A stretch of 64,000 nucleotides of DNA, taken from assembly GCA_964503955.1 (NCBI GenBank), contig CAZDCG010000004.1:16181-80180 (forward strand), given 5' to 3'. The notes under the pieces are model-generated. The model saw only the letters and a program-made list of their open reading frames with translations, was not told the DNA's origin and did no database searches. Within the stretch, counting starts at the first letter, position 1; each line of letters begins with the position of its first letter. Below, in pieces: positions 19,344 through 49,904 of this stretch. The stretch is from an uncultured Gammaproteobacteria bacterium (GTDB lineage: Bacteria; Patescibacteriota; Patescibacteriia; VMEV01; CAYQCH01). Both the position numbers and the translations under genes were made by a program.

Positions 19344-21761
19344 ATGGCCTACGACCACAGAGAAATCGAAGCTAAAATGCAGGCGTACTGGAAAGAAATC
19401 GACGCGTTCAAAACACATGATGCTTCTGGAAAGCCAAAAGCGTATATCCTTGATATGTTTCCCTATCCTTCAGGAGCCGGTTTGCATGTCGGCCATGTTG
19501 AGGGGTATACCGCAACCGATATTCTCGCCCGCTATAAACGGATGAACGGGTTTGAGGTGCTTCATCCCATGGGCTGGGACGCTTTTGGTTTGCCGGCCGA
19601 AAACTACGCCATCAAAGTCAACCGCCATCCGCGCCTGACAACCGACGAGAATATTCAAAACTTCAAGCGCCAGATCAATGCCATGGGAAAAAGCGTTGAC
19701 TGGAGCAGGGAAATCGACACCAGTTCTGAACAGTACTATCGCTGGACGCAATGGTTTTTCCTCTTTTTGTATAAAAACGATTTGGCTTATCGCAAAGAAG
19801 CCCCGGTGAATTGGTGTGAACATGACCAGACCGTTTTAGCCAATGAACAGGTTGTCGACGGCAAATGCGAACGCTGCAAAAACGAAGTGGTGCAAAAAAA
19901 TCTGCCCCAATGGTTCTTCAAGGTGACGTCCTATGCTGACCGCCTGCTCAAAGATTTGGACGCGCTTGATTGGCCTGAGGCGCTCAAAGAAATGCAGCGC
20001 AACTGGATTGGCCGTTCTGAGGGGGCGCGCCTGACTTTCAAAGTTGCAAATGCATCGGCTGAACATACCGGCGAATCCATCGAGGTTTTTACAACACGGC
20101 CGGATACCTTGTTTGGAGCCACGTATCTTGTCTTGGCGCCTGAGCATCCTTTGGTTGAACAGCTCACGACAAAAGAGCAGCTTTTGGCCGTGCAGGCGTA
20201 TCAGGATGAAGCTTCACGGCGGTCTGAACTGGAGCGCGTGGGAACGGATCAGAAGAAAACCGGTGTCTTTACCGGTTCGTATGCTGTACACCCGTTCACC
20301 GGAGACCTCCTGCCGATCTGGATTGCAGACTATGTGCTGATGGGATATGGCACTGGCGCCATCATGGCTGTACCCGCGCATGATGAGCGCGATTACGCCT
20401 TCGCGTCAGCATATGATCTTCCCGTCAAAACGGTCATCGAGCCGGCTGACAAAGAACATACGCAGCATGAGCTGCCATTTACGGGCGAAGGGATTCTGAT
20501 TCATTCCGACGAATTCAGCGGGCTTGAAAGCCATGAAGCAAAAGGCAAGGTCGCGCTTAAAGCAGGCGGTGAAATTGCCGTGAACTATAAAATCCGTGAC
20601 TGGCTTTTATCTCGTCAGCGATTTTGGGGCGCACCAATCCCGATCATCTACTGTGATGCTTGCGGTGTTGTCCCTGTTCCGGAAGATCAGCTGCCGGTTG
20701 TCTTGCCAAAAGAAGCGGATTTCAAATTGCAGGGTGATGGCAAATCGCCGCTGGCGCGCGTTGACGAGTTCGTGAACACCACTTGTCCGAAATGTGACGC
20801 CCCAGCGAAGAGAGAAACCGACACCATGGATGGTTTCGTCGATAACTCATGGTACTTCTTCCGTTATCTTGATCCAAACAATGATCAGGCATTTGCGTCT
20901 GCCGAAACGATCAAGCGCTGGATGCCCGTTGATGTCTATGTCGGTGGCGCGGAGCACGCTGTCGGTCATTTAATCTATTCTCGTTTCTTTACCAAGGTCT
21001 TGTTCGATCATGGGTATATCGATTTTGAAGAGCCGTTCCTGAAACTTGTAAACCAGGGAATCATCCTGGCGGAAGATGGGCAGAAGATGTCGAAGTCTTT
21101 AGGGAATGTGATTAATCCAGATGACGTAATCGCCGAATACGGAGCCGACACATTGCGTCTCTTCGAGATGTTTCTTGGTCCCTTGCAAGACGCAAAACCA
21201 TGGGACACAAAGGGGATTGTTGGCATGAAGCGCTTCTTAGAGCGTGTGCATCGCTTCTTTACCGAAAATCATGTGCGTTCAGATGCCGCTGCAGATCAGC
21301 AGGTAACAGCGCAGCTGCACCGCACCATCAAAAAGGTGACCCATGATATCGAGGCACTTCGTTTCAATACGGCTATCGCTTCGATGATGGAAATGCTTAA
21401 TGCGATGAACAAAAAAGGCGAGCTACCAATGGTTGAGGGTGTGGTTTTCCTCAAGCTGCTTTCTCCGTTCGCGCCGCATCTGGCGGAGTACCTCTACAAC
21501 GAGATGGGGAATGAAAATTCGCTTGGGATGACTGACTGGCCCGCCTATGACGAGAACCTTGTGAAAGAAGAACAGGCGGTGCTCGCCGTTCAGATCAATG
21601 GCAAGGTTCGTGATAAAATCGTTGTGACAAGCGACGCGGACGAAGCAGCTGCAAAGGCCGCCGCGCTCGCGTCTGAAAAAGTCGCTCGTCATCTTGAAGG
21701 ACAGGAAATCAAGAAGGTGATTTATGTGCAGGGAAGAATTATCAGTTTCTTGACGGAGTAA
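19344..21761 (+). CDS. leuS: Leucyl-tRNA synthetase
   Basis: 805 aa; HVGH (HIGH) motif at PYPSGAGLHVGHVEGY, KMSKS motif, and the leucine-specific editing domain pattern. Confidence 0.95.
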   Translation: MAYDHREIEAKMQAYWKEIDAFKTHDASGKPKAYILDMFPYPSGAGLHVGHVEGYTATDILARYKRMNGFEVLHPMGWDAFGLPAENYAIKVNRHPRLTTDENIQNFKRQINAMGKSVDWSREIDTSSEQYYRWTQWFFLFLYKNDLAYRKEAPVNWCEHDQTVLANEQVVDGKCERCKNEVVQKNLPQWFFKVTSYADRLLKDLDALDWPEALKEMQRNWIGRSEGARLTFKVANASAEHTGESIEVFTTRPDTLFGATYLVLAPEHPLVEQLTTKEQLLAVQAYQDEASRRSELERVGTDQKKTGVFTGSYAVHPFTGDLLPIWIADYVLMGYGTGAIMAVPAHDERDYAFASAYDLPVKTVIEPADKEHTQHELPFTGEGILIHSDEFSGLESHEAKGKVALKAGGEIAVNYKIRDWLLSRQRFWGAPIPIIYCDACGVVPVPEDQLPVVLPKEADFKLQGDGKSPLARVDEFVNTTCPKCDAPAKRETDTMDGFVDNSWYFFRYLDPNNDQAFASAETIKRWMPVDVYVGGAEHAVGHLIYSRFFTKVLFDHGYIDFEEPFLKLVNQGIILAEDGQKMSKSLGNVINPDDVIAEYGADTLRLFEMFLGPLQDAKPWDTKGIVGMKRFLERVHRFFTENHVRSDAAADQQVTAQLHRTIKKVTHDIEALRFNTAIASMMEMLNAMNKKGELPMVEGVVFLKLLSPFAPHLAEYLYNEMGNENSLGMTDWPAYDENLVKEEQAVLAVQINGKVRDKIVVTSDADEAAAKAAALASEKVARHLEGQEIKKVIYVQGRIISFLTE

Positions 21762-24870: not shown

Positions 24871-27800
24871 ATGCAAACAAGGAAAACAAAAATACTGGTG
24901 GGATTCATGGCGATCGGTCTTTTCATCACGTCTTTTCTTCCAAAGCCGGTTCATGCCGGCCTTCCGGTTTCCGATATCGGATCAATGGTTCAAAGCGCGG
25001 GACAATTTATTAAAAACACGTTTGACAAGATTCAAGAGACATTGTTGGACGAATTGGCAGTTGTTTTTTTCAATAATATCGTTCAGACCTTTGTCAATAA
25101 TCTGGCGGCGGAAACCGCCCAATGGATTGCCAGCGGAGACGAAGGGCAAAAGCCTTTGCTGTTTACCTCCGACTGGCAGGATTATCTTGAGAAAGCCGGT
25201 GAAGACGCGATCGCCTTTGCCGCAATCGGGTTTGCGGACGCGGTTGGCTTAGGAAATATCTGTATTGCTCCGGAAATTGCGATTGACATTATCCTGCCGC
25301 AAATCGAGCAGCCGGGAACAACCAAGCCGCGTTGTAGTCTCGATGATTTAAAGAAAACCTGGGATGTCACAAGCCCGGATTTCTTGCAGAATTTCACCCT
25401 TTCTTTTCAAACCGATCAGAACGACATAGGAATTGCCATTAGCTTCCTTGCGAATCTTGAAAAGGAGAAAACCGAAAAAAAGGAGGCAGCCGAAAATGAA
25501 CGCGATCAAAGCCCTTTTAAAGCCGTGAAAGATGCGATCAGCGGATTAACGGAAACGCCGGCACCTCTGGTTCAGAAGCAGGTGGAAAAAGTTGAAGATG
25601 GCACAACGGTAACTACCTATACATATACCAATCCTATCGGCGTATTGACCGGAGCTATCCAGGTTTTCGCCGGCACCCTCATGGGGCAGTATCTGAATAA
25701 ACTGCAAAGCGGATTTTTCTCCTTGGCTGATGCCGTCCCCGCGGAAGAAGACGTTGCGTCGCTTGTGCGAGGCTCGCTTTCCGATCCTCTTTCCACCGGA
25801 CCAACCGGATCGCAAACAGCACAGCTGAAATTCACCGATGTGTTCAAGCCGAATTTGCGCCAGGCAAATGATTTCAATATTTTGGCTGAACTGGCTGCCT
25901 GTCCTTCTGAAGTTCGATACGCCAGTATTTACAATTGTGTGATTGATTCAGGGTTCATGCAGGCGCTGTCAGGAGGGCGGAATGGATTTTTAACGGTCCG
26001 CGAGGCAGTGCAGCAAAATCTGCTGCATGGAAACTGGGTATTTGGATATGTTAATCCCGGTTCAGGAGCCGAGCCAAGCTATTTGAACGGGTACGCGTAT
26101 AGCAATATGAAAAAGCTGCGCCGGCTCAGAATTGTTCCTGTCGGCTGGGAAATGGCTGCATTGCGCGCACGTTCGCTTGGACAGAGCGTCACCTTGCTTG
26201 ATGTGATCAATTCGTATAACGATCAGGGCTCTCCTTTTTATAAATTGGTTGATCCGGAATGGGTGCTGAAAGTGCCAACCATGCGCTGTGCGGCAAAAGC
26301 ACCTGGGCAGATTCTTCAATCAGGAGGAACCGATCGCGTCGCCGAATGCGTTGATATTCAGGACTGTATTGCCTTTGGCGATGATGGCGAATGCCGAGCG
26401 TGGGCGTATTGTACGGCCGACCAGCGCGAATGGCGATTCCCTGCCGAGCAATGCCCGGAACATTATGCGACCTGCGAACAATTCTATTCTTCCGGCGAAG
26501 ATACGACACAAAATCTCTGGCTTTCTTCCACATTGGAATACGAAGGCTGCAATGCACAGACTGCAGGATGCACATGGTACTCAACGGTTAAAAACTCCGC
26601 CGGCGAATGGCAGGAAACAAATCGTGTCCATTTAACGTCTGCTGTACAGGCCTGTGATCCAAACGATGCGGGATGTCATCTTTATATTCGCATGGGCAAT
26701 GGTTCCAACCTGATCCGTAACGGCAGTTTTGAAGATGATGCGGGGCATAATTATGTGCTCGGACTGGGTGATACGGTTGCGGAAAACAGCATTCCCGACG
26801 GCTGGTCAGCGCGGCAGGCGCTCATCTCACTCAACGATGATGCCCAGCATGGAGAAGCATCCGTCCGCATCCAGCCGCAGCCAGGCGGAGAATGCCGCCC
26901 TGGATTGCAATATGAAGCACCGCTTGGACATTTCGAGATCGGTCAGCAATATACGCTCAGCGGACGCGTCCGAACGGAAAATGTCACTCCGGCAGATTTG
27001 CAGCTGTTCTTTCAGGGAATCACCTTCACCGTTGAAGATGTTAATAATGTTTGGAAATCATTCGCCTTTACCTTTGTCATGCCGTCAACAACACGTTCGT
27101 ACACCTTTGTGCTGGCAGGCAATAACGGGGATTGCGCGAATCTGAATCCAGGCGGAGCGGTTTTCTACGATGCCATCCAGCTTGAACGCAATACCTTGCC
27201 GACCTCCTATAAAGAGTATGGCTCTGTAAACCAGGTCAGCTTGAAGAATGCGCCTGCCTGTACATTTGAAGATGTCGGCTGCCAGCGCTATCTTCCTGTG
27301 GATCGAAAGAACGCGGCAACGGTCACGGGGGTTGCGACAGGACAGGATCTCTGTCCGGCTGAATGTGTCGGGTATGCCACCTACGAACAGCAGGAAACTG
27401 ATCTTGAGCCTGAGCGTATTGTGAATTTTATTCCATCTTCCGCAGATGTTTGTTCCGCTCAGGAAGTCGGTTGTGAGCAGTTCACCAATTTGGACGTAGT
27501 CGCGCGGGGAGGAGAAGGGCTTGAATACTATTCGCAAATCCGCCACTGTGAAAAACCACAGCCGCAATGCCAGACATACTTCGCCTGGGAAGGAAGTGAT
27601 GTAACCGGCTTCCAGCTTGTCAATTTCAGCCTGCTTGCCATCAATGAAGATGGTACGGGCGTGCCGCAAACAACCGATGGCAGCGTCACCTGTGATCCAA
27701 ATGACGCGGATTGCCGCGAGCTGATCGGCGAAGATGGATCACGGTCATTCCGCAATTTGAGCAAAACCATCACCTGTTCGGAAGCCTGCGTGCCGCTGCG

Positions 27801-30800
27801 CGCTCGTCCAGGTCTTGTGAATGAACAGGAATGTATCGCACGGCTTGGCGAATGGGATGCGCTCACGCAGCGCTGTGTTTTCCAGGCGATCGCGTCAGAA
27901 AGCCGTGTCTGCCGCGCCGAAGCGCTTGGCTGCCGCGAGTATCTTGGAACAACCGGCCATAATGTGGCGGTTGTGCTGGCTGAAAACTTTGAGAATGGGA
28001 CAATCGGCGACTGGATCAATGCTTCACTTAGCACAGAGTCTGTCAAAGTCGGCGGCCATTCCATGAAGCTTGGCAATCAGCAGGGAACCATCAATGCGGA
28101 AACCCGAACGGTTGTAGAAGATATCGCCGCCGACACTGCGTATACGCTCGAGCTGAACGCCCGTGCTTCCGTCAGCGATTTCCTCACGGTTACGGCTTAT
28201 CTTGGCAATGCGCCGGTCGAAGCAAACCGCATCGGTAGTTTTGTTACCGGGACCCTGTCATGGAATAAGTACCGTCTCGGGCCGATCACGACTCCTACGG
28301 AGCTTTCAGGCGTTCAGCAGCTGATTCTCGTGGTAGAAGGAGCCTCTAATAAGCCGGATATTATCAGCCTATTTGCGGACGATATCACCTTGCGCCGCAT
28401 CAATAGCAGTTTGTATCTCGCAAAAGATTCTTGGGAAACACCAAATACATGTGAAACAAATCCTCCGCTGGCCGGCGGTTCAGCTTCGCGTTCTATGGTG
28501 GGATGCCAGGCATACCGGATTGAGGGAGACACTTCAAATCAGACGCAGTTTCTCAAATCATTTACACGGCTTTGTTCAGAAGACAAGATCGGATGTGAAG
28601 CCCTGATTGACACGCATAATTCTGTTGCGCCATACCGCGAAGTGTATCAGCCCGGCAATCTCGCCGAAGTTGTTGTGCCTGAAGATAGTGTTACCTATCT
28701 GGTTAATAGAAAAGAGTATCGATGCCAGGCGGAACAAGTGGGCTGCATGGAACTTGGCAAGCCGGTTTTTGACCAGAACAATCAGATTACTTCATTCAAC
28801 TCCGTCTATCTCAAAAATAATCCGGACCAGTACGCAAGTATTCTCTGTCCGCAGGAATCACTGCGATGCGAAGCATTTACCAATAGCCGCAATGAAGTCG
28901 TATACGCCAAGAATCCGGGTCTGCAGCAATGTGAATACCGCGAAGTGCCAAATTCCTTCCCGGTGCGCTACGCATGGTTCAAGGTCGGTGGAACCGAAGA
29001 AAATCCTGTCGACTGTTTGCAGGCAAAGGATAATAGCTATGTGAACCGATGTGTTCCTTCAGCCGTGAGCTGTACGCAGTTTTATGAACCGATTACGCAG
29101 CAGTCATATTATTACAAGAAGAGCACCTTGCCGGGGACAGCGGCTTCTGAATGCAATGGCGTGGTGGACTGGAAGAAAGGCTGCGTCTTGTTTGATGATC
29201 AGAGCGTACGCAGCAAGTATTTCAAATCCGGTGACGATATTGATATCGTCGGCGCGGCGCAGGGCTGCCAGACAGGCGATGTCGGCTGCAATACAAATAC
29301 CTTGCTTCGCGTTCAGCTTGACCGTGTCTGCAGCCAGTGGCTGACCGGTGTCAGCTCAGGTTATTCCTGGGATCAGAATCTGCAGACCTACAAATCATTT
29401 AATTACGATATTGGACGTTGTCTGGAATATGATCCACTCAATCCTGCGGTTTGTCTGCAATGGGATAATGCGGATGACAAGCCGTTGCTCACAGAAGAAT
29501 TCTACAAAAACCGCGATACATCATGGGTGGGCGATGATTATACCGGATACTCCATTCCATTTGCTTATCCTGTTGAAACGCTCAAGCAATACAGTCTGAA
29601 TATCACTGAAGACGGCACTCCGTCCGAGTATCGTCTGGCATATCTTGAAGTTCCTCCGAATCAGCAAAGCTGTCTTACCTCTGCCGATTGTCCGCAGGGA
29701 GGCGGCATTGAGCAGGTTTGCCGTTTGGAATTGAATCCGGACAGCGGAGATTTCCAAGGATCATGTTTCATCAACCGCGGAATCTCACGTGGAGGAACAG
29801 CATCTGAGGGAGAATGCCGCGCGTATCCGGAAAACGATTCTCCATTCCCTCCATCGGTTGCCACCTTCTATCCTGATACAGATGCCGAAAATCCGGGAGG
29901 CATCAGCTCAGTCAATCCGCTCTTTGCCAATGCCAATATCGGTACGGCCGGAGAGAATGTCGAATGTAATTACGTCAAAGCCTACTATGCGGGTGATCGC
30001 CGCTATTACTCGCTTGATACGATTATTCCATCAACCATTACCGTGCGAGGCGAGCCGCAAAAATTCGACAAAAAAGAAGTCTATTACGGCTGGGAAGGCT
30101 ATTGTCTGGAACGAGACAATTCCCGCATCATTAATGGAGACCGTTCACAAACTGCTTGCTTGACCTGGTATCCGGTTGATCTCATCCAGGGCGCGAGAGA
30201 CTTGAACAATACCGATATCAATGCGGGATACTACGCGGATCATGAACAGACCATGTACTGCGCGCAGGCGGTCTTTGCCGAATATCTCACTCCAAGGGAA
30301 TCCTGCGGGGCATGTCCTTCACCACACTATGAAACCATCGTTCAGCGCAGCGGCACCTGTACGCATCCGTTTAAGGCTCCCGACTTGCTTGAATCAACCG
30401 GCACAAGATTCTTGAATCTCAATGAGACAGATCAAACGATTATTTTCGGCCTTGTTTCATTCTTCAGCTTTGGCGCGGGAGCAAGCATATTCCAGGCCCT
30501 GGCAGCCTTTGGCGTGCTGGATCTGGCAAGCGATCTGCTTGGAACGGATGAATATCCTGAAGTGACCTGTATTCCGCGTTACGGCGAAGGGTGGTATCCA
30601 AAAGTCTATCCAAATCCTCCGTTTGATCCGGAAAATCCGAACAATGCCCTTATGTGCAGCGTGGTGGCGCGTATCCAAAGCCCAGCTGGCGTGAACAAAG
30701 CCTATACAGACCGCATCCATGATACTGAATATATCGTGCCGGAGCTTGGCTGGACATACATCCAGCAAAACGTTCCGTTTGGCAGCGTTCGTGCGGGAAC

Positions 30801-32370
30801 AGAAAAGCTTGAAGAACTTGTTGAACCATTATTGCTGAAGCCGGCAACGCAGTTTGTAGAATGCAATGACTGCCGCGTTCCAGGTGAAGATCCTGAAAAT
30901 CCGGATCCATTGAAATTCGGTGTTTGCCAGGATCGTGATCCAAATAAGAAAGGACGTCCATGTCCGCTCTTCCCGAATGCCGGTTCGCCGTACAGTCTGC
31001 TCTCGCTTTATCCGCAATGGGCCAATAATGATTGGGTCCGCGTGCGAGCCGATAATCAGGTCTGGACAGATCAGGCCATCAATCAGCCATATACGCGAAC
31101 CGAACAGTTGGAAGACGGCACAAGACGGCTGCAGGAACTCTTTGCTAAATCCTACGGGGTCTGGTATTGGCAGCTCGGATTTGAAGCGGTTTGCGTCGGA
31201 ACATGCCAGGGAGGACCAAGAGAAGGTGAATTCTGCAAATCAGTCAACGAATGCGGTGATACGGATTCATCTATTGCCTATACATGCCAGCAGGCCAACC
31301 AGGAAACCGGCCTCTGTGTCGGCGGAGTAAAACACACATATTCATGCACAAGCGATCTGGATTGTTCCGGACCAGCCATTGAGGATCTCCAGACCGACTT
31401 TGTTGATATTCCCGGCTTCAACTGTGTTGAAGCGCCTGATGACGCGAATAGCGTGTTCATCTGTGAAGGAGGTCCATGGAAAGGCAATGCGTGCCAAACC
31501 GATGCCGACTGCGCTCCGCCGGTTCTTGACGGTAAATGCGATTTCACGCAGAACCGCTGTGTCGGCCAGGTCAATGGCCAGACAATCTGGTCCGCGAATT
31601 CCGGACAGATCTGCAATAACTCAGCTGAGTGCAATGCGGTTGCCACCTGCCGCGTGGATCGATGTTCCACCGAGATTGGTAAACCAAATACCGGGCTCTG
31701 CGACGGCTTGCAGGCCGGACAAGCATGCGGTGATTCTTCCGGACGAAATCAGTATGTTCAGGATGATGCCATTGGCTGGGACCTGATCCGTGACAATCCA
31801 TCCGTTGCCGAGCCGCCTGTGATTCAGCCGACCATTCCAGATTCCACCAGTCCAAACGGCTATGCGGAAGGATTCATTGCGAATGATGGCGGATTCTCCG
31901 TCAATGGAAGGGTAAACGGCACAATCACGAGCACGGAAGGGCGCGCGCCGGTAACCGTCAGCTTCTATGCCTATAACAGCAATGGAGAACAAATGCCATT
32001 GCGTGTGATCATGGTTGATTGGGGCGACAATACTGACCTGTCTACCTCGGTTGGTTCCTTCAAGAATCATAAACATGTCTGCCGGCGCTCCTGCAGCTAT
32101 AATGTCCTGATCTCCTGTGATGCGGACAGAGATTGCCAGAACCAGCAATTCCCTGACGCGACCTGTAATCCGGAAAATTTCGGCGACAGCCTTGATGCAT
32201 GCGTAGAAGACACGGAAAATGAATTCGGTTTCTTCTCCTTCTCTCATACCTATACGTGTGAAGGCGCAACCGACTGTGTTTACACGCCTCGCGTACTGGT
32301 ACGTGATAACTGGGGAGCCGTCACGCGCGTGACATGGCCTGGACAAATCGTGGTCTCTCCAAGACAGTAA
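24871..32370 (+). CDS. Giant (2499 aa) cysteine-rich extracellular protein with an N-terminal signal-anchor and at least two CBM4/9-like (galactose-binding-like) modules; putative adhesin/surface protein
   Basis: Uninterrupted 7.5 kb ORF; N-terminal TM; more than 100 Cys in CxxC/CxnC patterns; NGSFEDDAGHNY...SVRIQP and ENFENGTIGDW...SMKLGN resemble CBM_4_9 starts. Confidence 0.8.
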   Translation: MQTRKTKILVGFMAIGLFITSFLPKPVHAGLPVSDIGSMVQSAGQFIKNTFDKIQETLLDELAVVFFNNIVQTFVNNLAAETAQWIASGDEGQKPLLFTSDWQDYLEKAGEDAIAFAAIGFADAVGLGNICIAPEIAIDIILPQIEQPGTTKPRCSLDDLKKTWDVTSPDFLQNFTLSFQTDQNDIGIAISFLANLEKEKTEKKEAAENERDQSPFKAVKDAISGLTETPAPLVQKQVEKVEDGTTVTTYTYTNPIGVLTGAIQVFAGTLMGQYLNKLQSGFFSLADAVPAEEDVASLVRGSLSDPLSTGPTGSQTAQLKFTDVFKPNLRQANDFNILAELAACPSEVRYASIYNCVIDSGFMQALSGGRNGFLTVREAVQQNLLHGNWVFGYVNPGSGAEPSYLNGYAYSNMKKLRRLRIVPVGWEMAALRARSLGQSVTLLDVINSYNDQGSPFYKLVDPEWVLKVPTMRCAAKAPGQILQSGGTDRVAECVDIQDCIAFGDDGECRAWAYCTADQREWRFPAEQCPEHYATCEQFYSSGEDTTQNLWLSSTLEYEGCNAQTAGCTWYSTVKNSAGEWQETNRVHLTSAVQACDPNDAGCHLYIRMGNGSNLIRNGSFEDDAGHNYVLGLGDTVAENSIPDGWSARQALISLNDDAQHGEASVRIQPQPGGECRPGLQYEAPLGHFEIGQQYTLSGRVRTENVTPADLQLFFQGITFTVEDVNNVWKSFAFTFVMPSTTRSYTFVLAGNNGDCANLNPGGAVFYDAIQLERNTLPTSYKEYGSVNQVSLKNAPACTFEDVGCQRYLPVDRKNAATVTGVATGQDLCPAECVGYATYEQQETDLEPERIVNFIPSSADVCSAQEVGCEQFTNLDVVARGGEGLEYYSQIRHCEKPQPQCQTYFAWEGSDVTGFQLVNFSLLAINEDGTGVPQTTDGSVTCDPNDADCRELIGEDGSRSFRNLSKTITCSEACVPLRARPGLVNEQECIARLGEWDALTQRCVFQAIASESRVCRAEALGCREYLGTTGHNVAVVLAENFENGTIGDWINASLSTESVKVGGHSMKLGNQQGTINAETRTVVEDIAADTAYTLELNARASVSDFLTVTAYLGNAPVEANRIGSFVTGTLSWNKYRLGPITTPTELSGVQQLILVVEGASNKPDIISLFADDITLRRINSSLYLAKDSWETPNTCETNPPLAGGSASRSMVGCQAYRIEGDTSNQTQFLKSFTRLCSEDKIGCEALIDTHNSVAPYREVYQPGNLAEVVVPEDSVTYLVNRKEYRCQAEQVGCMELGKPVFDQNNQITSFNSVYLKNNPDQYASILCPQESLRCEAFTNSRNEVVYAKNPGLQQCEYREVPNSFPVRYAWFKVGGTEENPVDCLQAKDNSYVNRCVPSAVSCTQFYEPITQQSYYYKKSTLPGTAASECNGVVDWKKGCVLFDDQSVRSKYFKSGDDIDIVGAAQGCQTGDVGCNTNTLLRVQLDRVCSQWLTGVSSGYSWDQNLQTYKSFNYDIGRCLEYDPLNPAVCLQWDNADDKPLLTEEFYKNRDTSWVGDDYTGYSIPFAYPVETLKQYSLNITEDGTPSEYRLAYLEVPPNQQSCLTSADCPQGGGIEQVCRLELNPDSGDFQGSCFINRGISRGGTASEGECRAYPENDSPFPPSVATFYPDTDAENPGGISSVNPLFANANIGTAGENVECNYVKAYYAGDRRYYSLDTIIPSTITVRGEPQKFDKKEVYYGWEGYCLERDNSRIINGDRSQTACLTWYPVDLIQGARDLNNTDINAGYYADHEQTMYCAQAVFAEYLTPRESCGACPSPHYETIVQRSGTCTHPFKAPDLLESTGTRFLNLNETDQTIIFGLVSFFSFGAGASIFQALAAFGVLDLASDLLGTDEYPEVTCIPRYGEGWYPKVYPNPPFDPENPNNALMCSVVARIQSPAGVNKAYTDRIHDTEYIVPELGWTYIQQNVPFGSVRAGTEKLEELVEPLLLKPATQFVECNDCRVPGEDPENPDPLKFGVCQDRDPNKKGRPCPLFPNAGSPYSLLSLYPQWANNDWVRVRADNQVWTDQAINQPYTRTEQLEDGTRRLQELFAKSYGVWYWQLGFEAVCVGTCQGGPREGEFCKSVNECGDTDSSIAYTCQQANQETGLCVGGVKHTYSCTSDLDCSGPAIEDLQTDFVDIPGFNCVEAPDDANSVFICEGGPWKGNACQTDADCAPPVLDGKCDFTQNRCVGQVNGQTIWSANSGQICNNSAECNAVATCRVDRCSTEIGKPNTGLCDGLQAGQACGDSSGRNQYVQDDAIGWDLIRDNPSVAEPPVIQPTIPDSTSPNGYAEGFIANDGGFSVNGRVNGTITSTEGRAPVTVSFYAYNSNGEQMPLRVIMVDWGDNTDLSTSVGSFKNHKHVCRRSCSYNVLISCDADRDCQNQQFPDATCNPENFGDSLDACVEDTENEFGFFSFSHTYTCEGATDCVYTPRVLVRDNWGAVTRVTWPGQIVVSPRQ

Positions 32371-32405
32371 TAATTGACAAAGAAACAACCTAATCGTACA
32401 GTACA

Positions 32406-32434
32406 AAACGTGCCAGCCAGGCACGTTTTTGTTT
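32406..32434 (+). terminator. Rho-independent terminator of the giant gene (aaacgtgcc-agcca-ggcacgttt-ttgttt)
   Basis: 9-bp stem plus T-run 35 nt after the stop. Confidence 0.7.
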
Positions 32435-32521
32435 CCCTTTGCCGGGGTGGTGGAACCCGCCGTCCATCGGTCGTCGAACTCCCTTAGGACTGGCGGGCAG
32501 GTTGGCAGACACAATTTATAT

Positions 32522-32608
32522 GCCGGGGTGGTGGAATTGGTAGACACGCGTGGCTTAGGACCACGTGGGGTAAAACCTGTGCAGGTTCGAGTCCTGTCCC
32601 CGGTACCA
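32522..32608 (+). tRNA. tRNA-Leu (anticodon TAG), class II with long variable arm, CCA encoded
   Basis: GCCGGGG acceptor stem, GTGGAATTGGTAGAC D-arm, anticodon loop CTTAGGA, long variable arm, GGTTCGAGTCC T-arm, ...CCCCGGTACCA. Confidence 0.85.
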
Positions 32609-32779
32609 GCAAAGCTCCCGCATGATTGTATGCGGGGGCTTTGCTTTTATTCAGAGGACTCGAACCTTGGGAAAGGGGCGTGGGGAAAACGGAAGTTTTC
32701 ACCACTGGGCGGTTTTTGAGGAAGGGGTACAGCGAAGCGCCATAGGGGAAACGCCGTTTCCCCTTGGAGAGCGAAGCGA

Positions 32780-32806
32780 CGGTTTGATGTCCTGTCCCCG
32801 GTACCA
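32780..32806 (+). repeat. Duplicate of the tRNA-Leu T-arm/3' acceptor end (ggtttgatgtcctgtccccggtacca), about 180 bp downstream of the intact gene
   Basis: 18/18 identity over gtcctgtccccggtacca plus a diverged T-loop; this resembles the att-core scar of a tRNA-targeting integrative element. Confidence 0.5.
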
Positions 32807-33107
32807 CAAAAAAACGCACTCTGTGCGTTTTTTTGCTCTAGTGTCTGATTTCTCTGTCTACATCTATATCTAAACATCGTCATAATCTCTTGTGTCTCTT
32901 AGATAGAGAAGTAGACCTGGAAAATAGAGGTAGATCACGGTGTCGCTTCGCGAGCTTTTCAATGCAGCAGCAGAAAAACGCTTGTGTTTGTCTGCAGATC
33001 TCAGGAGCCTGTTATGTCTTTAAAGTCTGCCCAACGCTCACCCACCTTGCTTCAATCTCCCACATCTGTTGAAATATCACATCCCGAGGATTCCAACAGG
33101 AGGAGAA

Positions 33108-33320
33108 ATGTTTTACGTGGGACGACTCATCTGGCTCTTGTCGTTTGCCATGTTCAGTCTTACCGTTTACGTCCAGGTTGCCCACTCGGACTGGTCGCCT
33201 CCGGATCTTCTGCTGATCCAGATCAGGCAGGGGTTGTTCATGATCGCACTCTTTGGGGTGGGGATCATGAGCATGGATCGGAACCGTGAGCGGGACGAGC
33301 GGCAACGCCCTCAGCGGTAG
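33108..33320 (+). CDS. Small (70 aa) two-TM membrane protein, hypothetical
   Basis: SD AGGAGGAG immediately upstream of the ATG; hydrophobic helices LIWLLSFAMFSLTVYV and LFMIALFGVGIM. Confidence 0.4.
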   Translation: MFYVGRLIWLLSFAMFSLTVYVQVAHSDWSPPDLLLIQIRQGLFMIALFGVGIMSMDRNRERDERQRPQR

Positions 33321-33480: not shown

Positions 33481-33509
33481 TTGACGTGTTTTTCCTTCTT
33501 TGCTACAAT
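33481..33509 (+). promoter_or_regulatory. Strong sigma70-type promoter (TTGACG-17-TACAAT), probably the rRNA operon promoter
   Basis: Near-consensus -35/-10 with 17-nt spacing, about 380 nt upstream of the mature 23S 5' end. Confidence 0.5.
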
Positions 33510-34522
33510 CTGTCTACCAATGAAATGTCCGATTTCTTAGAAATGCGGACCTCTTTCTGGGAATTATCTTATGCAAAATCTCCAAAGTGAACAGAATACT
33601 GTTTTCTAGGCAAGTCGCATAATGATTTCTGGAAAGGAAATCCTTGCGGCTGGCTTACGGGCCAGTTTTTTCGTCCCTCAAATTTCACCCCCGAGACTGG
33701 ATGATCCGGTCATTCGATCCCGGTTGTGAAGACTGCATTTTGACAATTGAATATAACGCAATACAAACCAGTAATGTCACATGCATCTTTGTGAAGATAC
33801 ATGCGACGCAAATGCAATTTACAATGCAGTGTCTTAAATGACACTGCTGCTACAAATGCTTATTGTGGCCATTCAAGTTCATTGAATGGTTACCTCAATA
33901 AGGGCAAATGTGTGAATGCCTAGACATCTGGAGACGATGAAGGACGTGGCAGCCTGCGAAAAGCTTCGGTGAGGTGGCAAGCAACCTGTGACCCGGAGAT
34001 GTCCCAATGGGGAAACCCGGCCGTGTAAAGCACGGTCATCACATGACTGAATACATAGGTCAGTGAAGACAACCTAGGGAACTGAAACATCTTAGTACCT
34101 AGAGGAAAAGAAAACAGCAAGACCCTTTATAAATCTGCAGACATCACTTCGGTGCTGACTGTCAGATTTATAAAGGACGTGATTCCCTTAGTAGCGGCGA
34201 GCGAACGGGGAAAAGCCTAAACCCTATCGGTGGGCCTTTCTGTAAGATGTGGGATTTATCTTATATCAAGCAGTCAGGTTAAAGGATTGTGCCGTTGCCG
34301 ATTCGGTGTTGTGAGGCGAGTCGTTAGGAATCACAATATTCCTAGATAGTTGGAGTTCATATAGAAGAAGTTCCTGGAATCGGAACGCCAAAGAAGGTGA
34401 TAGCCCTGTAATCGAAATATGCTTCTCCACCTATGGACTATGTCCTCAAGTACAGCGGGACTCGTGAAATCCTGTTGGAATCAGGGGTGACTATGCTCCA
34501 AGGCTAAATACTACCAGATGAT

Positions 34523-34559
<37 letters not shown>

Positions 34560-36061
34560 CACCCCGGTGAGGGGTCGTGAAATAGACCTGAAACCATTTG
34601 CCTACAAGGAGTCGAAGGTCCTTCGGGACTGACGGCGTGCCTATTGAAGAATGAGCCAACGAGTTTGTTCTATGTTGCTTGTTTAATCTCTATATAGAGA
34701 GAAGGCATAGTGAAAGCGAGGCTTAACCGCCGAACTGAGAGGAATAATTCCCGTCTCGGGTCATTGACCCGTCCGGGGATTTATTCCTCTCTTCTGCAGC
34801 ATAGACAAGACCCGAAGCCGGGTGATCTATCCATGGCCAGGTTGAATCTCATCGAAAGATGAGAGGAGGACCGAACCCACGCGCCGTGCAACACGCGGGG
34901 ATGAGTTGTGGATAGCGGAGAAATTCCAATCGAACTCGGCTATAGCTGGTTCTCCCCGAAACAGTTTTTGGACTGGCCTGCGATCGTCCCCTCTGGGGGT
35001 AGAGCACTGTTTGAGGTTCGGGCCTTCGGGTACCGTCCACAGACAAACTCCGAATACCGGAGGATTATAATCGCAGAGTTACACTATGGGGGCTAAGCTC
35101 CATTAGTGAAAAGGGAAACAGCCCAGATCGCCAAATAAGGTCCTTAAATCTTCGTTAAGTGTGAAAGGTGGTGAGGCGGCTTATACAACGAGGAGGTTGG
35201 CTTAGAAGCAGCCATCCTTTAAAGAAAGCGTAATAGCTCACTCGTCCAGCTGCCTTGCGCCGAAAATGTAACGGGGCTAAACGAAGTACCGAATTTGCGG
35301 GTCTATACCTTTCGAGGTATGGGCGGTAGGGGAGCGTTCTTATCTGCGTTGAAGCCCAAACGTGAGAATGGGTGGAGTGATAAGAAGTGAGAATGTTGGC
35401 ATAAGTAGCAGAAATGCGGGTGAGAACCCCGCACACCGAAAACCCAAGGTTTCCTGGGCCATGAAAATCAGCTCAGGGTTAGTCGGTCCTAAGGCGAGGC
35501 TGAAAAGCGTAGTCGATGGACAGCAGGTTAATATTCCTGCACCACGGTGTTGACTGATGGAGTGACGCTTGATCAAAGTCTCCGCGTAGTTTGGTTATCT
35601 ACGTTGGGGCAGGCAACTGGCGCTATTGGCAAATCCGTAGCGCAATACAGAAGCCTGCATCTGAAGAGGAAGCCCTCGGGTGGAATCGACGGAGGCGGAG
35701 GTTGAGCCAAGAAAAACTTCTAGGGTTAATCAGCATCGTGTCCGTACCGTAAACCGACACAGGTGGGTGAGGCGAGAAGCCTCAGGTGAACGAGAGAAAC
35801 ATGGTTAAGGAACTCGGCAAAACAGCGGTCGTACCTTCGGTATAAGGCCTGCCTACGCCCTTCGGGGTTGTAGGTCGCAGCGAAAGACTCCAAGCGACTG
35901 TTTACCAAAAACACAGGTCCCTGCTAAAGCGCAAGCTGATGTATAGGGGCTGATGCCTGGCCAGTGTCCGAACGTTAAGAGGAGAGGTGATCCAATTTAT
36001 TGGCGTAGCCTTGAATCCAAGCGCGGATGAACGCCGGCGATAACTATAATCGTCCTAAGGT

Positions 36062-36831
36062 GAATTTGTTGCCTTAGTGGGGTGAAAGCCCCCTCTTCCG
36101 AACTGCCTATGCCGGGCAGATGTAGGAGAAAAATCTGGCTATATGCTGGAATATCTGGAGAATTCTGTGCTCCTAGGGTATACTGTCACCATAGTATGCC
36201 TAGGAAAAACGCCACAGATGTAGCTTTGGTTGAAGATTTACCAAAGTTGCCAGACAATCAGCAGGAAAGACCAGAAATGATTGGTTGGATTGTAGGATTT
36301 ACTGACGGTGAAGGTTGCTTCTCTGTTAGTCTTATCCGTAACAAAACAACCTCTACTGGGTGGCAGGTGTTTCCTGAGTTTGTTATCACGCAAGGAGAGA
36401 AAAGCAGATCAGCGCTTGAATTACTTCAAAAACATTTCAAATGCGGACAGCTAATCCTCAATAAGCGCTATGACAATCATCGCGAACATCTAATAAAATA
36501 CTGCGTCAGGTCTCGTAGAGACTTGAAAGAAAAAATTATTCCCTTCTTCAAAAAAGCTCAGCTTTTGACGGCGAAGAGAAATGATTTTGAAATCTTTTGT
36601 AAGATCATCGTTCTTATGGAAGAACGAAAGCATCTGCATCTTTCAGGATTGAAAACAATCGCGAAACTGATCGAACAGATGAACCGCAGAAAACCCTCCT
36701 CATTTCTGGAATCCTCAGAGACTACACGCCGGAACGATACATAATCGTAAGATATAGTCCGACCCCTATGGCGACATAGGGAGAATGGCAGAAATGACCA
36801 TTCCTCTACATGTGGTAGAAGTAACAAATTG
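36062..36831 (+). mobile_element. Group I intron inserted after U of CCTAAGGU (E. coli about position 1917) in 23S rRNA, ending in omega-G
   Basis: 23S exon sequence breaks after cgtcctaaggt and resumes exactly at agcgaaattccttgtcggg; the intron houses a LAGLIDADG ORF. Confidence 0.7.
36196..36744 (+). CDS. LAGLIDADG-family homing endonuclease (single-motif type); the better SD-supported start is at 36277 (MIGWIVGFTDGEGCF)
   Basis: IVGFTDGEGCF LAGLIDADG motif and overall I-CreI-like size (about 155-180 aa). Confidence 0.8.
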   Translation: MPRKNATDVALVEDLPKLPDNQQERPEMIGWIVGFTDGEGCFSVSLIRNKTTSTGWQVFPEFVITQGEKSRSALELLQKHFKCGQLILNKRYDNHREHLIKYCVRSRRDLKEKIIPFFKKAQLLTAKRNDFEIFCKIIVLMEERKHLHLSGLKTIAKLIEQMNRRKPSSFLESSETTRRNDT

Positions 36832-36884
<53 letters not shown>

Positions 36885-37109
36885 GGAGACTGTCTCAACC
36901 ATGTACTCGGTGAAATTGCATGACGAGTAAAGATGCTCGTTACGCGTAGCAGGACGAAAAGACCCCGTGAAGCTTTACTACAGCTTGATATTGTCTTATT
37001 GCTTCAACTGTTCAGCATAGGTGGGAGCCTTCGGGCGCCAGTGAGATACCACCCTGTTGTCGTGGTAAGGCTAACCTTGCGCCGTCTATCCGGTGCGGGG
37101 ACAGTATCT

Positions 37110-37144
<35 letters not shown>

Positions 37145-37363
37145 AAGTAACGGAGGCGTTTACAAAGGTTGGCTAGCTCCGGATGGAAATCGGAGCGATA
37201 GTGTAAAGGCACAAGCCAGCTTTACTGCAAGACAGACACGTCGCGCAGTTACGAAAGTAGAACTTAGTGATCCGACGATCCAATATAGGATGGTCGAAGC
37301 TCATCGGATAAAAGTTACTCCGGGGATAACAGGCTGATCGCGCCCAAGCGTCCACAGCGACGG

Positions 37364-37425
<62 letters not shown>

Positions 37426-37438
37426 TGGCTGTTCGCCA

Positions 37439-37490
<52 letters not shown>

Positions 37491-38032
37491 CTATCCGCTA
37501 TGCGCGTTAAGATTTGAGAACCTCCTTCTCTAGTACGAGAGGACCGAGAAGGACGAACCTCTAGTGTACCAGTTGTCCCACCAGGGGCACCGCTGGGTAG
37601 CTATGTTCGGGTCGGATAAGTGCTGAAGGCATCTAAGCACGAAGCCGTGTTCAAGATTAGATCTTTATTCCTCCTGGGAGACGACCAGGTTGATAGGCTG
37701 CAGGTGTAAGCCCCGTGAGGGGTTCAGCCGAGCAGTACTAATGGATTGAGGTAACCTTTCAGTGAATTTCTCTGCGTCATATTTCGCGCGCTTCTTTGTT
37801 GAGAGCTCCGGTGCTCGACGCCGTACATCAGTACGGTTTACTCCGCACCTCGCTCTCGCCTCGAATCGCACTGAAATCTGAACGAGATTAAAGCCGCTGA
37901 AAAGATAGCATAAATACGTTTGCGATCACATGCGACTCGCAAAGGTGCAGTTGATATTATTGGAAGTATTGCGTTCAGAGAAATGGAATGGAAAGAGACG
38001 ACTAATCATCTAGTCTGCTCCTTCTGGTGCCA

Positions 38033-38140
38033 TTTCCAGAGGGGTCACACCTGTTCCCATCCCGAACACAGCAGTTAAGCCCTCCAGGGCCGATGGTAGT
38101 GCACAGCGCGAGAGTAGGTCGGTGCCAGGTTATGAAAAGA
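38033..38140 (+). rRNA. 5S rRNA
   Basis: UCUGGUGCC...GGUCACACCUGUUCCCAUCCCGAACAC...GCCGAUGGUAGU...GAGAGUAGGUCGGUGCCAGG, with helix I pairing between the ends. Confidence 0.8.
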
Positions 38141-46676: not shown

Positions 46677-47903
46677 GTGTCTATGTATTTAACCGAGGGC
46701 GAAGGAAAAACCTTATTCAAGGAGGCTGGTATACCCGTACCAGACTTTTTCTTTCATGAGAAAGGCGCAACGCTTCCTTCTCATGTCGCGTATCCGGCAA
46801 TGCTCAAAGCGCAGACGTTGAGCGGGTCGAGGGGGAAAGCTGGGCTCATTAAAGAAGCTGCCGACGCGCATGAAGCAGAAGCGATCCTTACAAAAATGTG
46901 GAAACAGCAAAGCCCGCGGCGATATTTTGAATCAATCCTGATTGAACCTCGTCTTCAGGCAAAAAGAGAATTCTATCTTAGTGTCACCTATGACACACTG
47001 TTGCGAAAGCCCATGCTAATGCTCAGCAAATTCGGAGGGATGGATATTGAGCTGGTGGCTAAACGGCAGCCAGATGCGGTTGTACAGATGGAACTCAGTT
47101 TGCTCCATCCGATCTCGCAACAGGAACTGGAACAAACATTTGTAAAAGCCGAGGTCCGCCCGGAACTGTTTCCATCGCTGTCAGAGATTGTTCACCATTT
47201 GTACCGGCTCTTTTTGCAATATGACTGCGAGCTGGCTGAAATCAATCCGTTGATAGAAACTGAGAATGGCTTTATGGCGGTCGACGCAAAGATCATTTTG
47301 GATGATACTGCTCTTTATCGGCACGAGCTCCCGTTTCCAAGACGAATGGGCGGTCGTCCACTTACGACAATGGAAGAACAAGCCCGAGCCATCGATGGAC
47401 GTTCACACCGCGGTGTAGTTGGAAGAACCTTTATCGAGCTTGATGGTAATATTGCCGTTCTTTCTTCCGGCGGGGGAGCCAGCGTTACTTGTCTGGATGC
47501 CTTAATCCATTACGGAGGCCGCCCCGCCAACTTTGCGGAGTATAGCGGGAATCCTGAGCGCGAAGATGTGCGCGATCTCACCAAACTCTTGCTTTCCAAA
47601 GAGGGGCTGGCCGGATTATGGGTGGTTGGTCCCACTGCCAATTTCACCGATGTACACGAAACAATTGGCGGGATTATCGATGCGCTCAAAGAAGTGAAGC
47701 CGAGCTTCCCGGTTGTCATCCGCCGCGCCGGCCCTAATGACGAAAAAGCCCGCGAACTGGTTGAGCATGTCAAAAAGGAAACCGGGCTTGATATCACTTT
47801 TTATGGTGAAGAAATTCCGATGACCGAGACCGCGAAGATTCTGTTGGAAAAATGCGATCCCAACCGAAGTGCCAGCGGAGCGGAGGCAGAGCATTTGTCG
47901 TAA
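46677..47903 (+). CDS. Succinyl-CoA synthetase beta-subunit-like ATP-grasp protein (SucC/citryl-CoA synthetase large-subunit-like); start GTG 46677 or ATG 46683
   Basis: ATP-grasp N-terminal half (LTEGEGKTLFKEAGIPVP...SGSRGKAGLIK) and C-terminal CoA-ligase domain. Confidence 0.7.
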   Translation: MSMYLTEGEGKTLFKEAGIPVPDFFFHEKGATLPSHVAYPAMLKAQTLSGSRGKAGLIKEAADAHEAEAILTKMWKQQSPRRYFESILIEPRLQAKREFYLSVTYDTLLRKPMLMLSKFGGMDIELVAKRQPDAVVQMELSLLHPISQQELEQTFVKAEVRPELFPSLSEIVHHLYRLFLQYDCELAEINPLIETENGFMAVDAKIILDDTALYRHELPFPRRMGGRPLTTMEEQARAIDGRSHRGVVGRTFIELDGNIAVLSSGGGASVTCLDALIHYGGRPANFAEYSGNPEREDVRDLTKLLLSKEGLAGLWVVGPTANFTDVHETIGGIIDALKEVKPSFPVVIRRAGPNDEKARELVEHVKKETGLDITFYGEEIPMTETAKILLEKCDPNRSASGAEAEHLS

Positions 47904-47961
47904 CTCGGTTTTATCTTAGGATGAGATCCATCCTGTCGGCGCTTGGGATGACGAAACTACT

Positions 47962-48411
47962 ATGTACAAAGCAGTCATTTTCGATTTCCTTGGAACGCTT
48001 TTCTTTGAAACTTCCTCGCTTGCTCCCGGCGCGGAGGATCTTTTACAATTCTGCAGGGAAAAAGGCTTAATGCTGGCCGCGGTTACAGCCGGGCAGTATG
48101 ATACAACCGAACTCAGCCGCCTTAAGCTTGATCAATATATTCCTCTGATCCGCATGGTTCAGACCTATGAAAGCAAGACACCAGAACTCTTTTCTGAGGT
48201 AATCAGCCAGCTTGGCGTAGAACCTAAGGAAGTGATCGGTGTGGGAGATTTGCTCCATAGAGAAATCAAATCGCTGAATCAGCTTGGAGCAACAACCATC
48301 AGCGTACACACGGAGCGGGCAGCAAGGGATGGATATGAGGAACCGCATTATAGGGCGAGGGATTTGTATGCTGTGAAGAAAATCATCCATTCTTTAATGT
48401 CTGAAAACTGA
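47962..48411 (+). CDS. HAD-like hydrolase (short), inserted between the SucC-like and SucD-like genes
   Basis: MYKAVIFDFLGTLF motif I; 149 aa. Confidence 0.55.
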   Translation: MYKAVIFDFLGTLFFETSSLAPGAEDLLQFCREKGLMLAAVTAGQYDTTELSRLKLDQYIPLIRMVQTYESKTPELFSEVISQLGVEPKEVIGVGDLLHREIKSLNQLGATTISVHTERAARDGYEEPHYRARDLYAVKKIIHSLMSEN

Positions 48412-48503
48412 ATCCTGATTTCTCGCTCTGGATTTGAGCCGCTTCAGAATCAGAAACGCAGGTCCAGTATTCAGAGATCAGATCTATCTTGATCAGACTA
48501 TAT

Positions 48504-49427: not shown

Positions 49428-49496
49428 ACTCTGGAGATCTAGAATCTGGATCTCTAGATCAAAGAGATCAAGAGTAACTGAAAACACCAGGTCCCC

Positions 49497-49904
49497 CTAG
49501 GCCTGGTGCTCTTTGTCTTCACGCAGCAGGGCGCAAAGATGCATAAGAAATTGTCCCTCCAAATCCGTGTGGAGTTCGCCGAACGAATGCTGTGCGAAAC
49601 GCATTGAATAGTAGAGCGTTTCAGCCCGAGCCCCTTTCAGAAGCTCGATGAGCTCGTGGCGGTCGCGCCGCTTCCAAATGAGTCTTGCAAATTGCAGGAT
49701 CTCGTCCACGACGCCGGCGGGGTACGGATTGCCGATAACGAAGTTGACCCAGAATCTGAGAAACCGCTTCTGCCGCTCGTATGGCAGGATTCTAAGCAGG
49801 GCAATGCTGGTATCAATGAGACGGATCAGATTATGCCGGTCTCGGCATTGCCACATGTCCACAAGGACCCGATACGATTGCTTCTCCTTGTCGCAACTTG
49901 ACAC
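49497..49904 (-). CDS. Hypothetical protein with an internal repeat (CRDRHNLIRLID / RRDRHELIELLKG), opposite strand inside the CoA-ligase cluster
   Basis: SD AAGGAGGGGG upstream of a GTG; about 55 % GC; no known domain. Confidence 0.4.
   Translation of the reverse strand: MSSCDKEKQSYRVLVDMWQCRDRHNLIRLIDTSIALLRILPYERQKRFLRFWVNFVIGNPYPAGVVDEILQFARLIWKRRDRHELIELLKGARAETLYYSMRFAQHSFGELHTDLEGQFLMHLCALLREDKEHQA

Follow-up and report, generated by a model that had tools for sequence, protein, structure and literature searches.

A recurrent gene-less module between duplicated 3′ ends of a tRNA-Leu gene: a possible miniature att-flanked element

Introduction

tRNA genes are classic landing sites of mobile DNA, and the partial tRNA copies found beside them are usually taken as dead scars. 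Does that reading hold at the tRNA-Leu(TAG) gene described here? The gene is the only tRNA gene in a 64-kb stretch of contig CAZDCG010000004.1 (positions 16,181 to 80,180, 64,000 nt, hereafter the window) and lies between the end of a 2499-aa open reading frame (ORF; 24871–32370) and an unlinked 23S–5S rRNA unit (23S at 33888–37758, 5S at 38023–38130). Short copies of its 5′ and 3′ ends recur on either side, and an initial annotation described them as the scars of a decayed or excised element. At the 3′ side, the “scar” proves to be a recurrent, highly conserved, gene-less module that is variably present among near-identical strains. The gene is best explained as a recombination hotspot with two separate small insertions; we give roughly even chances to the proposal that the 3′ insert is a miniature, non-autonomous element flanked by attachment (att) sites, or the conserved arm regions of one, rather than random debris.

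Partial tRNAs, tandem arrays and degenerate remnants beside tRNA genes are a signature of integrating elements (bioRxiv 10.1101/2020.12.28.424599; PMC9897764), and the core site of NBU1 overlaps a tRNA-Leu 3′ end (PMC10865867). The duplication of tRNA ends by insertion is thus well known; a conserved, recurrent, gene-less module shorter than 200 bp was not described in the literature that we searched. If mobile, it would be smaller than any known kind of insertion that targets tRNA genes and would point to a trans-acting recombinase in tiny-genome organisms; if functional, it would be an unrecognized tRNA-linked element. Either way, short tRNA fragments beside tRNA genes are not all neutral remnants, which is a caution for annotators, and the module offers a concrete sequence family to search for.

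Occupied and Empty Alleles in Sister Strains

The initial annotation proposed comparing the locus between related genomes, and this comparison revealed both an occupied and an empty site. Two contigs belong to the same species as the window: L001, a Logan contig that encodes a protein identical to the 70-aa product of 33108–33320, and L154, a JGI contig recovered by its T-arm plus acceptor pattern. Where the window has a block of 411 bp, both have 64 bp, and the second copy of the tRNA 3′ end is absent. The left edge of the block falls exactly at the CCA of the tRNA, and its right edge fades into weak similarity. On its left, the 132 bp up to and including the CCA agree with the window at 100% in L001 and the corresponding region at 99.4% in L154; on its right, from position 33020 on, the identity is 99.5% for L001 (945 bp) and 96.4% for L154.

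In both sister strains the tRNA runs straight into a terminator other than the T1 that begins the additional block in the window, the CCA being followed at once by TAAAAAATCCAAACATTTGTTTGGATTTTTT. This agrees with the initial interpretation of the 3′ duplication as the result of insertion at the 3′ end of the tRNA. In the window, the second copy continues as CCA-C-A7-hairpin-T7 and the empty allele as CCA-T-A6-hairpin-T6, alike in position and style, which fits T1 and the module as the inserted part and the downstream terminator T2 as the original one. Under the direction of events that we infer, a segment of ~180 bp (32609–32788) would have been inserted between two copies of the last 18 nt of the tRNA by site-specific att × att recombination. 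Since the insert carries its own terminator, the tRNA would stay intact and properly terminated, while the original 3′ end would have been displaced downstream, with an imperfect T-arm half-site, GACGGTTTGAT, before it and T2 behind it.

A second presence/absence pair was found in an unrelated lineage: L162 carries the module, and L200, which is syntenic with it (tRNA-Leu(TAA) followed by a GtrA-like gene, 75% amino acid identity), does not. L164, considered as an empty site for another module-bearing contig, L175, was rejected, having only the tRNA in common with it.

A chimeric join at conserved tRNA sequence in a metagenome-assembled genome could in principle create such an allele. The filled allele of this species is present in one assembly only, and contigs of the same organism break at the repeats, L001 starting inside the 5′ unit and L154 at a unit boundary. 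However, the block continues at both ends into sequence 99.5–100% identical to L001, contains a repeat found also at 54404–54514 of the window, and has the same architecture as independently assembled loci in L175, L183 and five L162-type contigs. We therefore regard an assembly artefact as highly improbable.

Architecture of the 3′ Insert

The sequence GTCCTGTCCCCGGTACCA occurs exactly at both ends of the insert, first as the last 18 nt of the tRNA gene (32591–32608) and again 198 bp further on; shuffled sequence gave a mean of 0.04 matches. A weaker similarity extends over 32781–32810 (90% over 31 nt), where the T-loop has diverged to the T-loop-like GGTTTGAT. The initial annotation had recognized this duplication and its diverged T-loop, and only its coordinates needed correction, those of the two duplications having been 1–3 nt off. 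The coordinates of all parts of the locus are collected in Table 1. The inverted T-arm copy, the three terminators, the D-arm remainder at 32502–32512 and the dispersed repeat are additions to the initial annotation.

Table 1. Features of the tRNA-Leu(TAG) locus in the window.
Feature	Position	Strand	Basis
Terminator hairpin with T-run behind the 2499-aa gene; borders the tRNA locus on the left	32405–32429	+	
81-bp 5′ unit	32440–32520	+	repeat analysis, strain comparison
Intact tRNA-Leu(TAG), CCA encoded	32522–32608	+	ARAGORN, Rfam (tRNA, 54.8 bits)
Terminator T1: 17-bp GC-rich hairpin (32608–32645), then TTTTATT	32608–32651	+	
Strain-variable block, 411 bp	32609–33019	+	comparison with L001 and L154
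Inverted copy of the tRNA's own T-arm, AGGACTCGAACCT, reverse complement of 32583–32595	32655–32667	+	
Module interior	32668–32788	+	hairpins, repeats, shared motif
Second copy of the tRNA 3′ end, GTCCTGTCCCCGGTACCA	32789–32806	+	
Terminator T2: A7, hairpin, T7; bidirectional; directly after the second CCA	32807–32835	.	
Quasi-palindromic dispersed repeat copy, within the strain-variable block	32844–32960	.	

From left to right, the segment between the 3′ repeats consists of a terminator, an inverted copy of the T-arm, hairpins, the motif CCCCTNGGAGAGCGNAGCGACGTTTG and the second tRNA 3′ end. T1 is unidirectional, as the other strand has no T-run. The module begins on the left with the inverted T-arm copy, which pairs with the right end, GGTTTGATGTCCTGT. 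The interior contains a hairpin with a GGAA loop (32685–32700) and two direct repeats of AGCGAAGCG (32731–39 and 32770–78) on either side of a 21-nt palindrome, AGGGGAAACG-C-CGTTTCCCCT, at 32744–32764; the palindrome reported initially is therefore real, although it lies at these positions rather than at 32742–32760. A right-arm motif, CCCCTTGGAGAGCGAAGCGACGGTTTG (32760–32786), is common to the window and contigs L175 and L183.

No ORFs were seen in 32609–32788 or in the rest of the block, and the other modules described below likewise have none; ORF remnants were not visible in any of the modules. ARAGORN and Rfam detected no convergent tRNA or tmRNA between the 3′ repeats, where acceptor pairing is not possible. 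The initial description of the region downstream as ORF-poor holds except for one credible small gene at 33108–33320, which has a ribosome-binding site and whose product is identical in L001.

The dispersed repeat in the right part of the block has a second copy at 54404–54514 (69% identity over 111 nt, E 2e-9, matching in both orientations), both copies being intergenic. The core of this ~110-nt quasi-palindrome is GTCTACATCTATATCTAA together with an inverted partner.

Several other identities were considered for the insert and rejected. The second copy includes 18 nt complementary to the tRNA 3′ end, as a primer-binding site would, but in the module-bearing contig L112 the copy lacks the CCA just as the gene does, which indicates that the copies derive from DNA and not from mature tRNA. 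A group II intron domain V was dismissed, there being no D5 helix. The target duplication and terminal repeats of casposons and the ends of IS200/605-type elements did not apply either: the duplication is variable in length, and there are no terminal repeats at the repeat borders.

Recurrence and Conservation in Other Lineages

We surveyed 250 tRNAs in 1.19 Mb of loci, each of at most 8 kb, and found copies of a tRNA's own end within 500 nt at only about eight of them. Four of these, all tRNA-Leu genes, are followed by the 3′ architecture of the window in ORF-less form; they lie in the unrelated contigs L175, L183, L162 and L112, of which L112 comes from a Spirochaetaceae genome. In each, the order is tRNA, terminator or spacer, inverted copy of the tRNA's own T-arm, hairpins, second tRNA 3′ end and terminator. 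The inverted T-arm copy measures 18 nt in L175 and L183, 13 nt in L162 and 11 nt in L112; a further contig, L096, has an inverted T-arm of 15 nt and no second copy of the tRNA 3′ end. The direct repeats measure 48 nt in L175 and L183, about 13–30 nt in L162 and 19 nt in L112. The window insert would accordingly belong to a recurrent family whose members combine a terminator, an inverted T-arm copy, hairpins, the motif GAGCGNAGCGAC and a T-arm-like half-site.

The window and L175 share more than tRNA-derived sequence. Just ahead of the second copy, both carry the non-tRNA motif CCCCT(T/G)GGA(G)GAGCG(A/T)AGCGAC(G)GTTTG, whose score was reached in none of 2000 shuffles. A covariance model built from L175 and L183 only ranked positions 32651–32806 of the window first, at full length, with an E-value of 0.012.

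The strongest conservation was observed between L175 and L183, the latter recovered through a homologue of the ORF adjoining L175. Their tRNAs are 100% identical, and their module interiors are 97.5% identical (118/121), apart from one 20-nt hairpin inserted in L183, whereas the spacer is 72% identical, the ORF 71%, and its third codon positions 40%, that is, saturated. Each of the two terminator copies is 93% identical between the lineages, with the same two lineage-specific substitutions in both copies. A module this similar beside saturated third positions is not drifting like neutral DNA. The additional hairpin of L183 is TTGTCTGCCGTTAGGCAGAC (760–779); TGTCTGCCG...AGGCAG is common to it and to the T-arm hairpin of tRNA-Leu pseudo-copies in contig L103 (6405–6423 and 6742–6760).

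These data bear directly on the view taken by the initial annotation, namely that the fragments are what is left of a large, ordinary genomic island or prophage after decay by random deletion. The tRNA 3′ end is indeed directly repeated, no integrase remains, and degenerate-element remnants with partial tRNAs are documented (bioRxiv 10.1101/2020.12.28.424599). However, separate lineages that lost DNA by random deletion would not retain the same motif and order of parts, and a neutral remnant would not keep 97.5% identity while the flanking spacer falls to 72%. Moreover, the survey recovered short-range copies at about eight tRNAs and a long-range copy (>700 nt) at one, a comparison limited by the locus size of at most 8 kb. 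With the inter-repeat segment being a recurrent module with a significant non-tRNA motif also present in L175 and L183, decay of a large island appears improbable, and the description as a decayed or excised element is not sustained.

Conservation of this kind could instead reflect selection. The module, and perhaps the 5′ unit too, might be a functional element, either a structured RNA derived from the trailer or leader of the tRNA or a site on the DNA that a host protein recognizes, whose tRNA-like ends exist to pair together or with the tRNA T-arm, or to reuse the tRNA processing signals. Besides the 97.5% identity despite saturated synonymous sites, several features favor such a role: hairpins are matched in position and different in sequence (AGGGGAAACG/CGTTTCCCCT in the window, AGGGGT/ACCCCT in L175), the 20-nt hairpin added in L183 resembles an expansion segment, each module has GNRA-type loops (GGAA, GGAA, GCAA and GTAA), the module ends pair with a G·T wobble kept in both the window and L175, and the two terminator copies evolve in concert.

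The initial annotation had itself named a conserved functional RNA as the alternative to be considered. High conservation was indeed found; Rfam returned nothing beyond the tRNA, even at E-values up to 10, and fold energy was no better than that of shuffled sequences (plus-strand z of −0.07 in the module and 0.01 in the 5′ unit; minus-strand z of −1.1 and −1.5). The module contains no promoter-like site and has terminators on either side. It is also dispensable, being absent in L001 (99.5% identical), L154 (96%) and L200. A selected function is, in our judgement, the main alternative, though an unlikely one.

The sample behind these comparisons consists of few contigs, with two to three homologous modules comparable in sequence. 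A genome-collection scan with the 26-nt tRNA 5′ half, a stretch common to many phyla, yielded no close relatives among the matches listed and served as a background sample of tRNA-Leu loci; a search for syntenic loci through the C-terminus of the 2499-aa protein found no homologues. Most relatives of the ORF adjoining L175 do not lie beside a tRNA. Some homologues of the neighboring ORFs of L175 and L183 are labeled as DPANN archaea and one lies beside a DnaA-like gene; the tRNA and promoter of the two contigs look bacterial, and the host assignments of both are uncertain.

Comparison with Known Mobile Elements

The window insert most closely recalls the tyrosine-integrase elements that occupy tRNA 3′ ends, such as P4-like elements, NBU1-like elements at tRNA-Leu, and tycheposons. 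It shares with them an exact direct repeat of the tRNA 3′ end (18 nt here) beside an intact tRNA restored with element-supplied sequence, a displaced end downstream, and an unoccupied site in close relatives (L001 and L154 against the window, L200 against L162); tandem arrangements and remnants are also known for those elements. In contrast, the insert has no integrase and no cargo and measures only about 110–180 bp, the repeat extends into the terminator, with lengths between 13 and 48 nt, an inverted T-arm lies at the left, and the module is highly conserved between diverged hosts.

Cis-mobilizable elements (CIMEs) are flanked by att sites, lack recombination genes and are mobilized by a related integrative and conjugative or integrative and mobilizable element; the known ones are several kilobases long, with an identified helper. 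The window insert resembles them in being att-flanked without a recombinase of its own, so that mobilization in trans would be presumed, and differs from them in its length of less than 200 bp and in that no helper was found. The CIME concept is treated in a review (PMC5704250). Miniature inverted-repeat transposable elements (MITEs) offer another parallel: the module is small, ORF-less and hairpin-rich, with inverted-repeat ends, and occurs sporadically in near-identical form in diverged hosts. Unlike MITEs, it has one fixed target, always the tRNA-Leu 3′ end, with one copy per genome fragment instead of many dispersed ones, a long flanking duplication of variable length (13–48 nt) in place of a short one of constant size, and ends that mimic the T-arm of the target.

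Several observations weigh against a miniature att-flanked element. As the initial annotation noted, no integrase is left: no integrase, recombinase, excisionase or transposase domain was detected in the ORFs of at least 200 aa in the 64-kb window, which are housekeeping genes such as those for LeuRS, PolA, RuvB and RNase Y. Scans of IMG/VR for the core and module motifs revealed no autonomous element, nor a free or circular form or an autonomous relative with the same phage-type attachment site (attP). A circle of 165–200 bp would be a very small recombination substrate. The direct repeat varies in length, and in L175 and L183 it takes in the host-specific terminator, so that it resembles a target duplication or gene conversion more than a fixed att core. 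The bits of the covariance model come mostly from the tRNA-derived end, the tRNA's own 3′ end scoring 11.2 against 13.0 for the module, and the 97.5% conservation could equally mean a selected function. Furthermore, the window allele differs from L001 also past the second repeat, at T2 and 32836–33019, so that a single clean insertion does not account for the difference between the alleles; a divergent allele may have been imported by homologous recombination.

If the insert is nevertheless a non-autonomous element, it would depend on a recombinase encoded elsewhere. A precedent for recombination in trans by host enzymes exists in the integrative mobile elements exploiting Xer (IMEXs), which exploit XerCD. 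We tentatively consider, as a possibility on the doubtful side, that the module represents an undescribed class of gene-less miniature elements of ~120–180 bp, specialized for tRNA-Leu 3′ ends in small-genome, uncultivated lineages (bacteria resembling the candidate phyla radiation, CPR, and others, including a spirochaete) and spread by a recombinase acting in trans, possibly that of the host. Such elements would consist of a terminator, an inverted mimic of the target T-arm and a conserved arm motif; on insertion they would duplicate the 3′ end of the tRNA, in some cases along with its terminator.

The 81-bp 5′ Unit and Hairpin-Patched tRNA Copies

The 5′ duplication has a different character. 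The sequence TGCCGGGGTGGTGGAA occurs exactly at 32440–32455 and, 81 bp further on, at 32521–32536, where it comprises the first 15 nt of the tRNA gene and 1 nt upstream; three matches with at most three mismatches were reached in no dinucleotide shuffle. The initial annotation was right about the exact 16-nt duplication and one position off in its coordinates. It took the fragment for a simple scar, and that view gives way to another: the fragment is the start of an 81-bp unit composed of TGCCGGGGTGGTGGAA, a hairpin CCCGCCGTCC...GGACTGGCGGG (32456–32497), CAGG, TTGGCAGACAC and AATTTATA. TTGGCAGACAC, which follows the 42-nt hairpin, is a D-arm remainder that matches nucleotides 17–27 of the tRNA at 10 of 11 positions, and the unit as a whole is laid out as the first 27 nt of the tRNA split by a hairpin.

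The unit is present in 1.2 copies in the window and at least 2.2 copies in L154 (period 81, 100% match), a count limited by the contig end; head-to-tail units whose number differs by strain make it a variable-number tandem repeat. The same layout of tRNA nucleotides 1–16, hairpin and D-arm remainder was found in L056, a Kaiserbacteria contig, and at the tRNA-Gly of L103, so the unit is no one-off. It is best seen as an insertion separate from the 3′ block, bounded by the 16-nt repeats, whose copy number then changed by unequal exchange; the unit would grow and shrink by unequal crossing-over or slippage between the two copies of the first 16 nt of the tRNA. A nested arrangement, with a tRNA-carrying element inside the resident tRNA as in tRNA-dependent lysogeny, was rejected, since the two parts occur separately: the 5′ units but not the 3′ block in L154, and the 3′ module with no 5′ fragment in L175 and L183. 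A viral match to the 5′ hairpin, in L182, was likewise discarded as a chance 19-mer within a coding region.

Partial tRNA copies with hairpins also surround small GIY-YIG genes (79–83 aa) that lie between an intact tRNA and its 3′ pseudo-copy in L109 (4070–4570), L103 (5800–6780) and L095 (7690–7980). L109 has a 5′ pseudo-copy as well, with the same 15-nt hairpin patch, CCCGCCTGAGGCGGG, in place of the tRNA middle, and L103 has two tandem units, the first without the ORF. Stems of the CCCGCC/GGCGGG type recur in the tRNA pseudo-copy hairpins of unrelated genomes: they occur at 32456–32497 in the window, at 4114–4128 and 4540–4554 in L109, and at 5830–5850 and 6069–6091 in L103. Across the low-GC loci (322 kb), four of the six such hairpins are in L103 and L109; three of them adjoin tRNA pseudo-copies, and the fourth is at 4817 in L109. 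One possibility is that the GC-hairpin patches, in the window and beside GIY-YIG genes, are a common signature of an uncharacterized mobility mechanism that targets tRNA genes.

These loci introduce a further explanation, in which repair of double-strand breaks in the tRNA gene produced the fragments. The gene would be cut by a homing endonuclease or by an abortive recombinase, and segmental duplication through microhomology and template switching at hairpins would leave hairpin-patched partial tRNA copies. At phage tRNA genes, the GIY-YIG homing endonuclease SegB causes tandem amplification through microhomology with a tRNA 5′ end (PMC13096335), and like this free-standing T4 gene and the genes of L103, L109 and L095, the window locus combines partial copies around an intact tRNA, hairpin patches and tandem amplification. 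The hairpin-patched fragments flank intact tRNAs beside small GIY-YIG genes (PF01541, E 1e-16 to 1e-18; tRNA-Cys in L109 and tRNA-Leu in L103, and also L095), and the L103 unit that lost its ORF shows decay into ORF-less units. The CCCGCC/GGCGGG stems are shared by the window 5′ unit and L109, with a related form at the L103 tRNA-Gly, the inverted T-arm copy across T1 is the expected outcome of a fold-back template switch, and the window genome itself hosts a homing endonuclease, the LAGLIDADG ORF in its 23S gene.

On the other hand, neither tblastn nor Pfam located a GIY-YIG or other nuclease ORF near the window tRNA, the L103 and L109 proteins giving no tblastn match in the window, and the sequence of the module differs from that of the GIY-YIG units. 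The module interior was not copied from local sequence, and one-off scars would neither be 97.5% conserved between lineages nor have a specific motif across distant hosts. We consider break repair unlikely as the source of the fragments.

Neighboring Genes and Other Features

A sigma-70-like site, TTGACA-17-TACAGT (10/12), lies at 32374–32402 and ends 3 nt ahead of the terminator hairpin that borders the tRNA locus; it may either drive the tRNA across this hairpin or match by chance. The gene for leucyl-tRNA synthetase (19344–21761) is on the same strand, ~11 kb upstream of the tRNA-Leu gene. Downstream, the gene at 33108–33320 sits between the tRNA locus and an rRNA promoter-like site (33481–33509); its 70-aa product has a hydrophobic N-terminal half and no Pfam match, and the L154 version belongs to the same 90% cluster.

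At 3871 nt, the 23S rRNA gene exceeds its 2925-nt model and holds the LAGLIDADG homing-endonuclease ORF (36082–36744; Pfam E 4.5e-23) as well as a small hairpin insertion near 34110–34170. No 16S gene lies upstream of it. The 23S insertions, the missing upstream 16S and the gene content point to a CPR-like bacterium. In the comparison of L154 (positions 1–158) with the window from 33598 on, the match ends ~290 bp before the 23S gene and L154 goes on with unrelated sequence, so that the rRNA leader or its linkage also varies between strains.

Finally, three ORFs at 46677–50646 match parts of an enzyme resembling ATP-citrate lyase or succinyl-CoA synthetase (ATP-grasp with citrate-binding, CoA-ligase and citrate-synthase C-terminal domains). 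They are separated by gaps of about 550–590 bp and could be split genes or genes that hold insertions.

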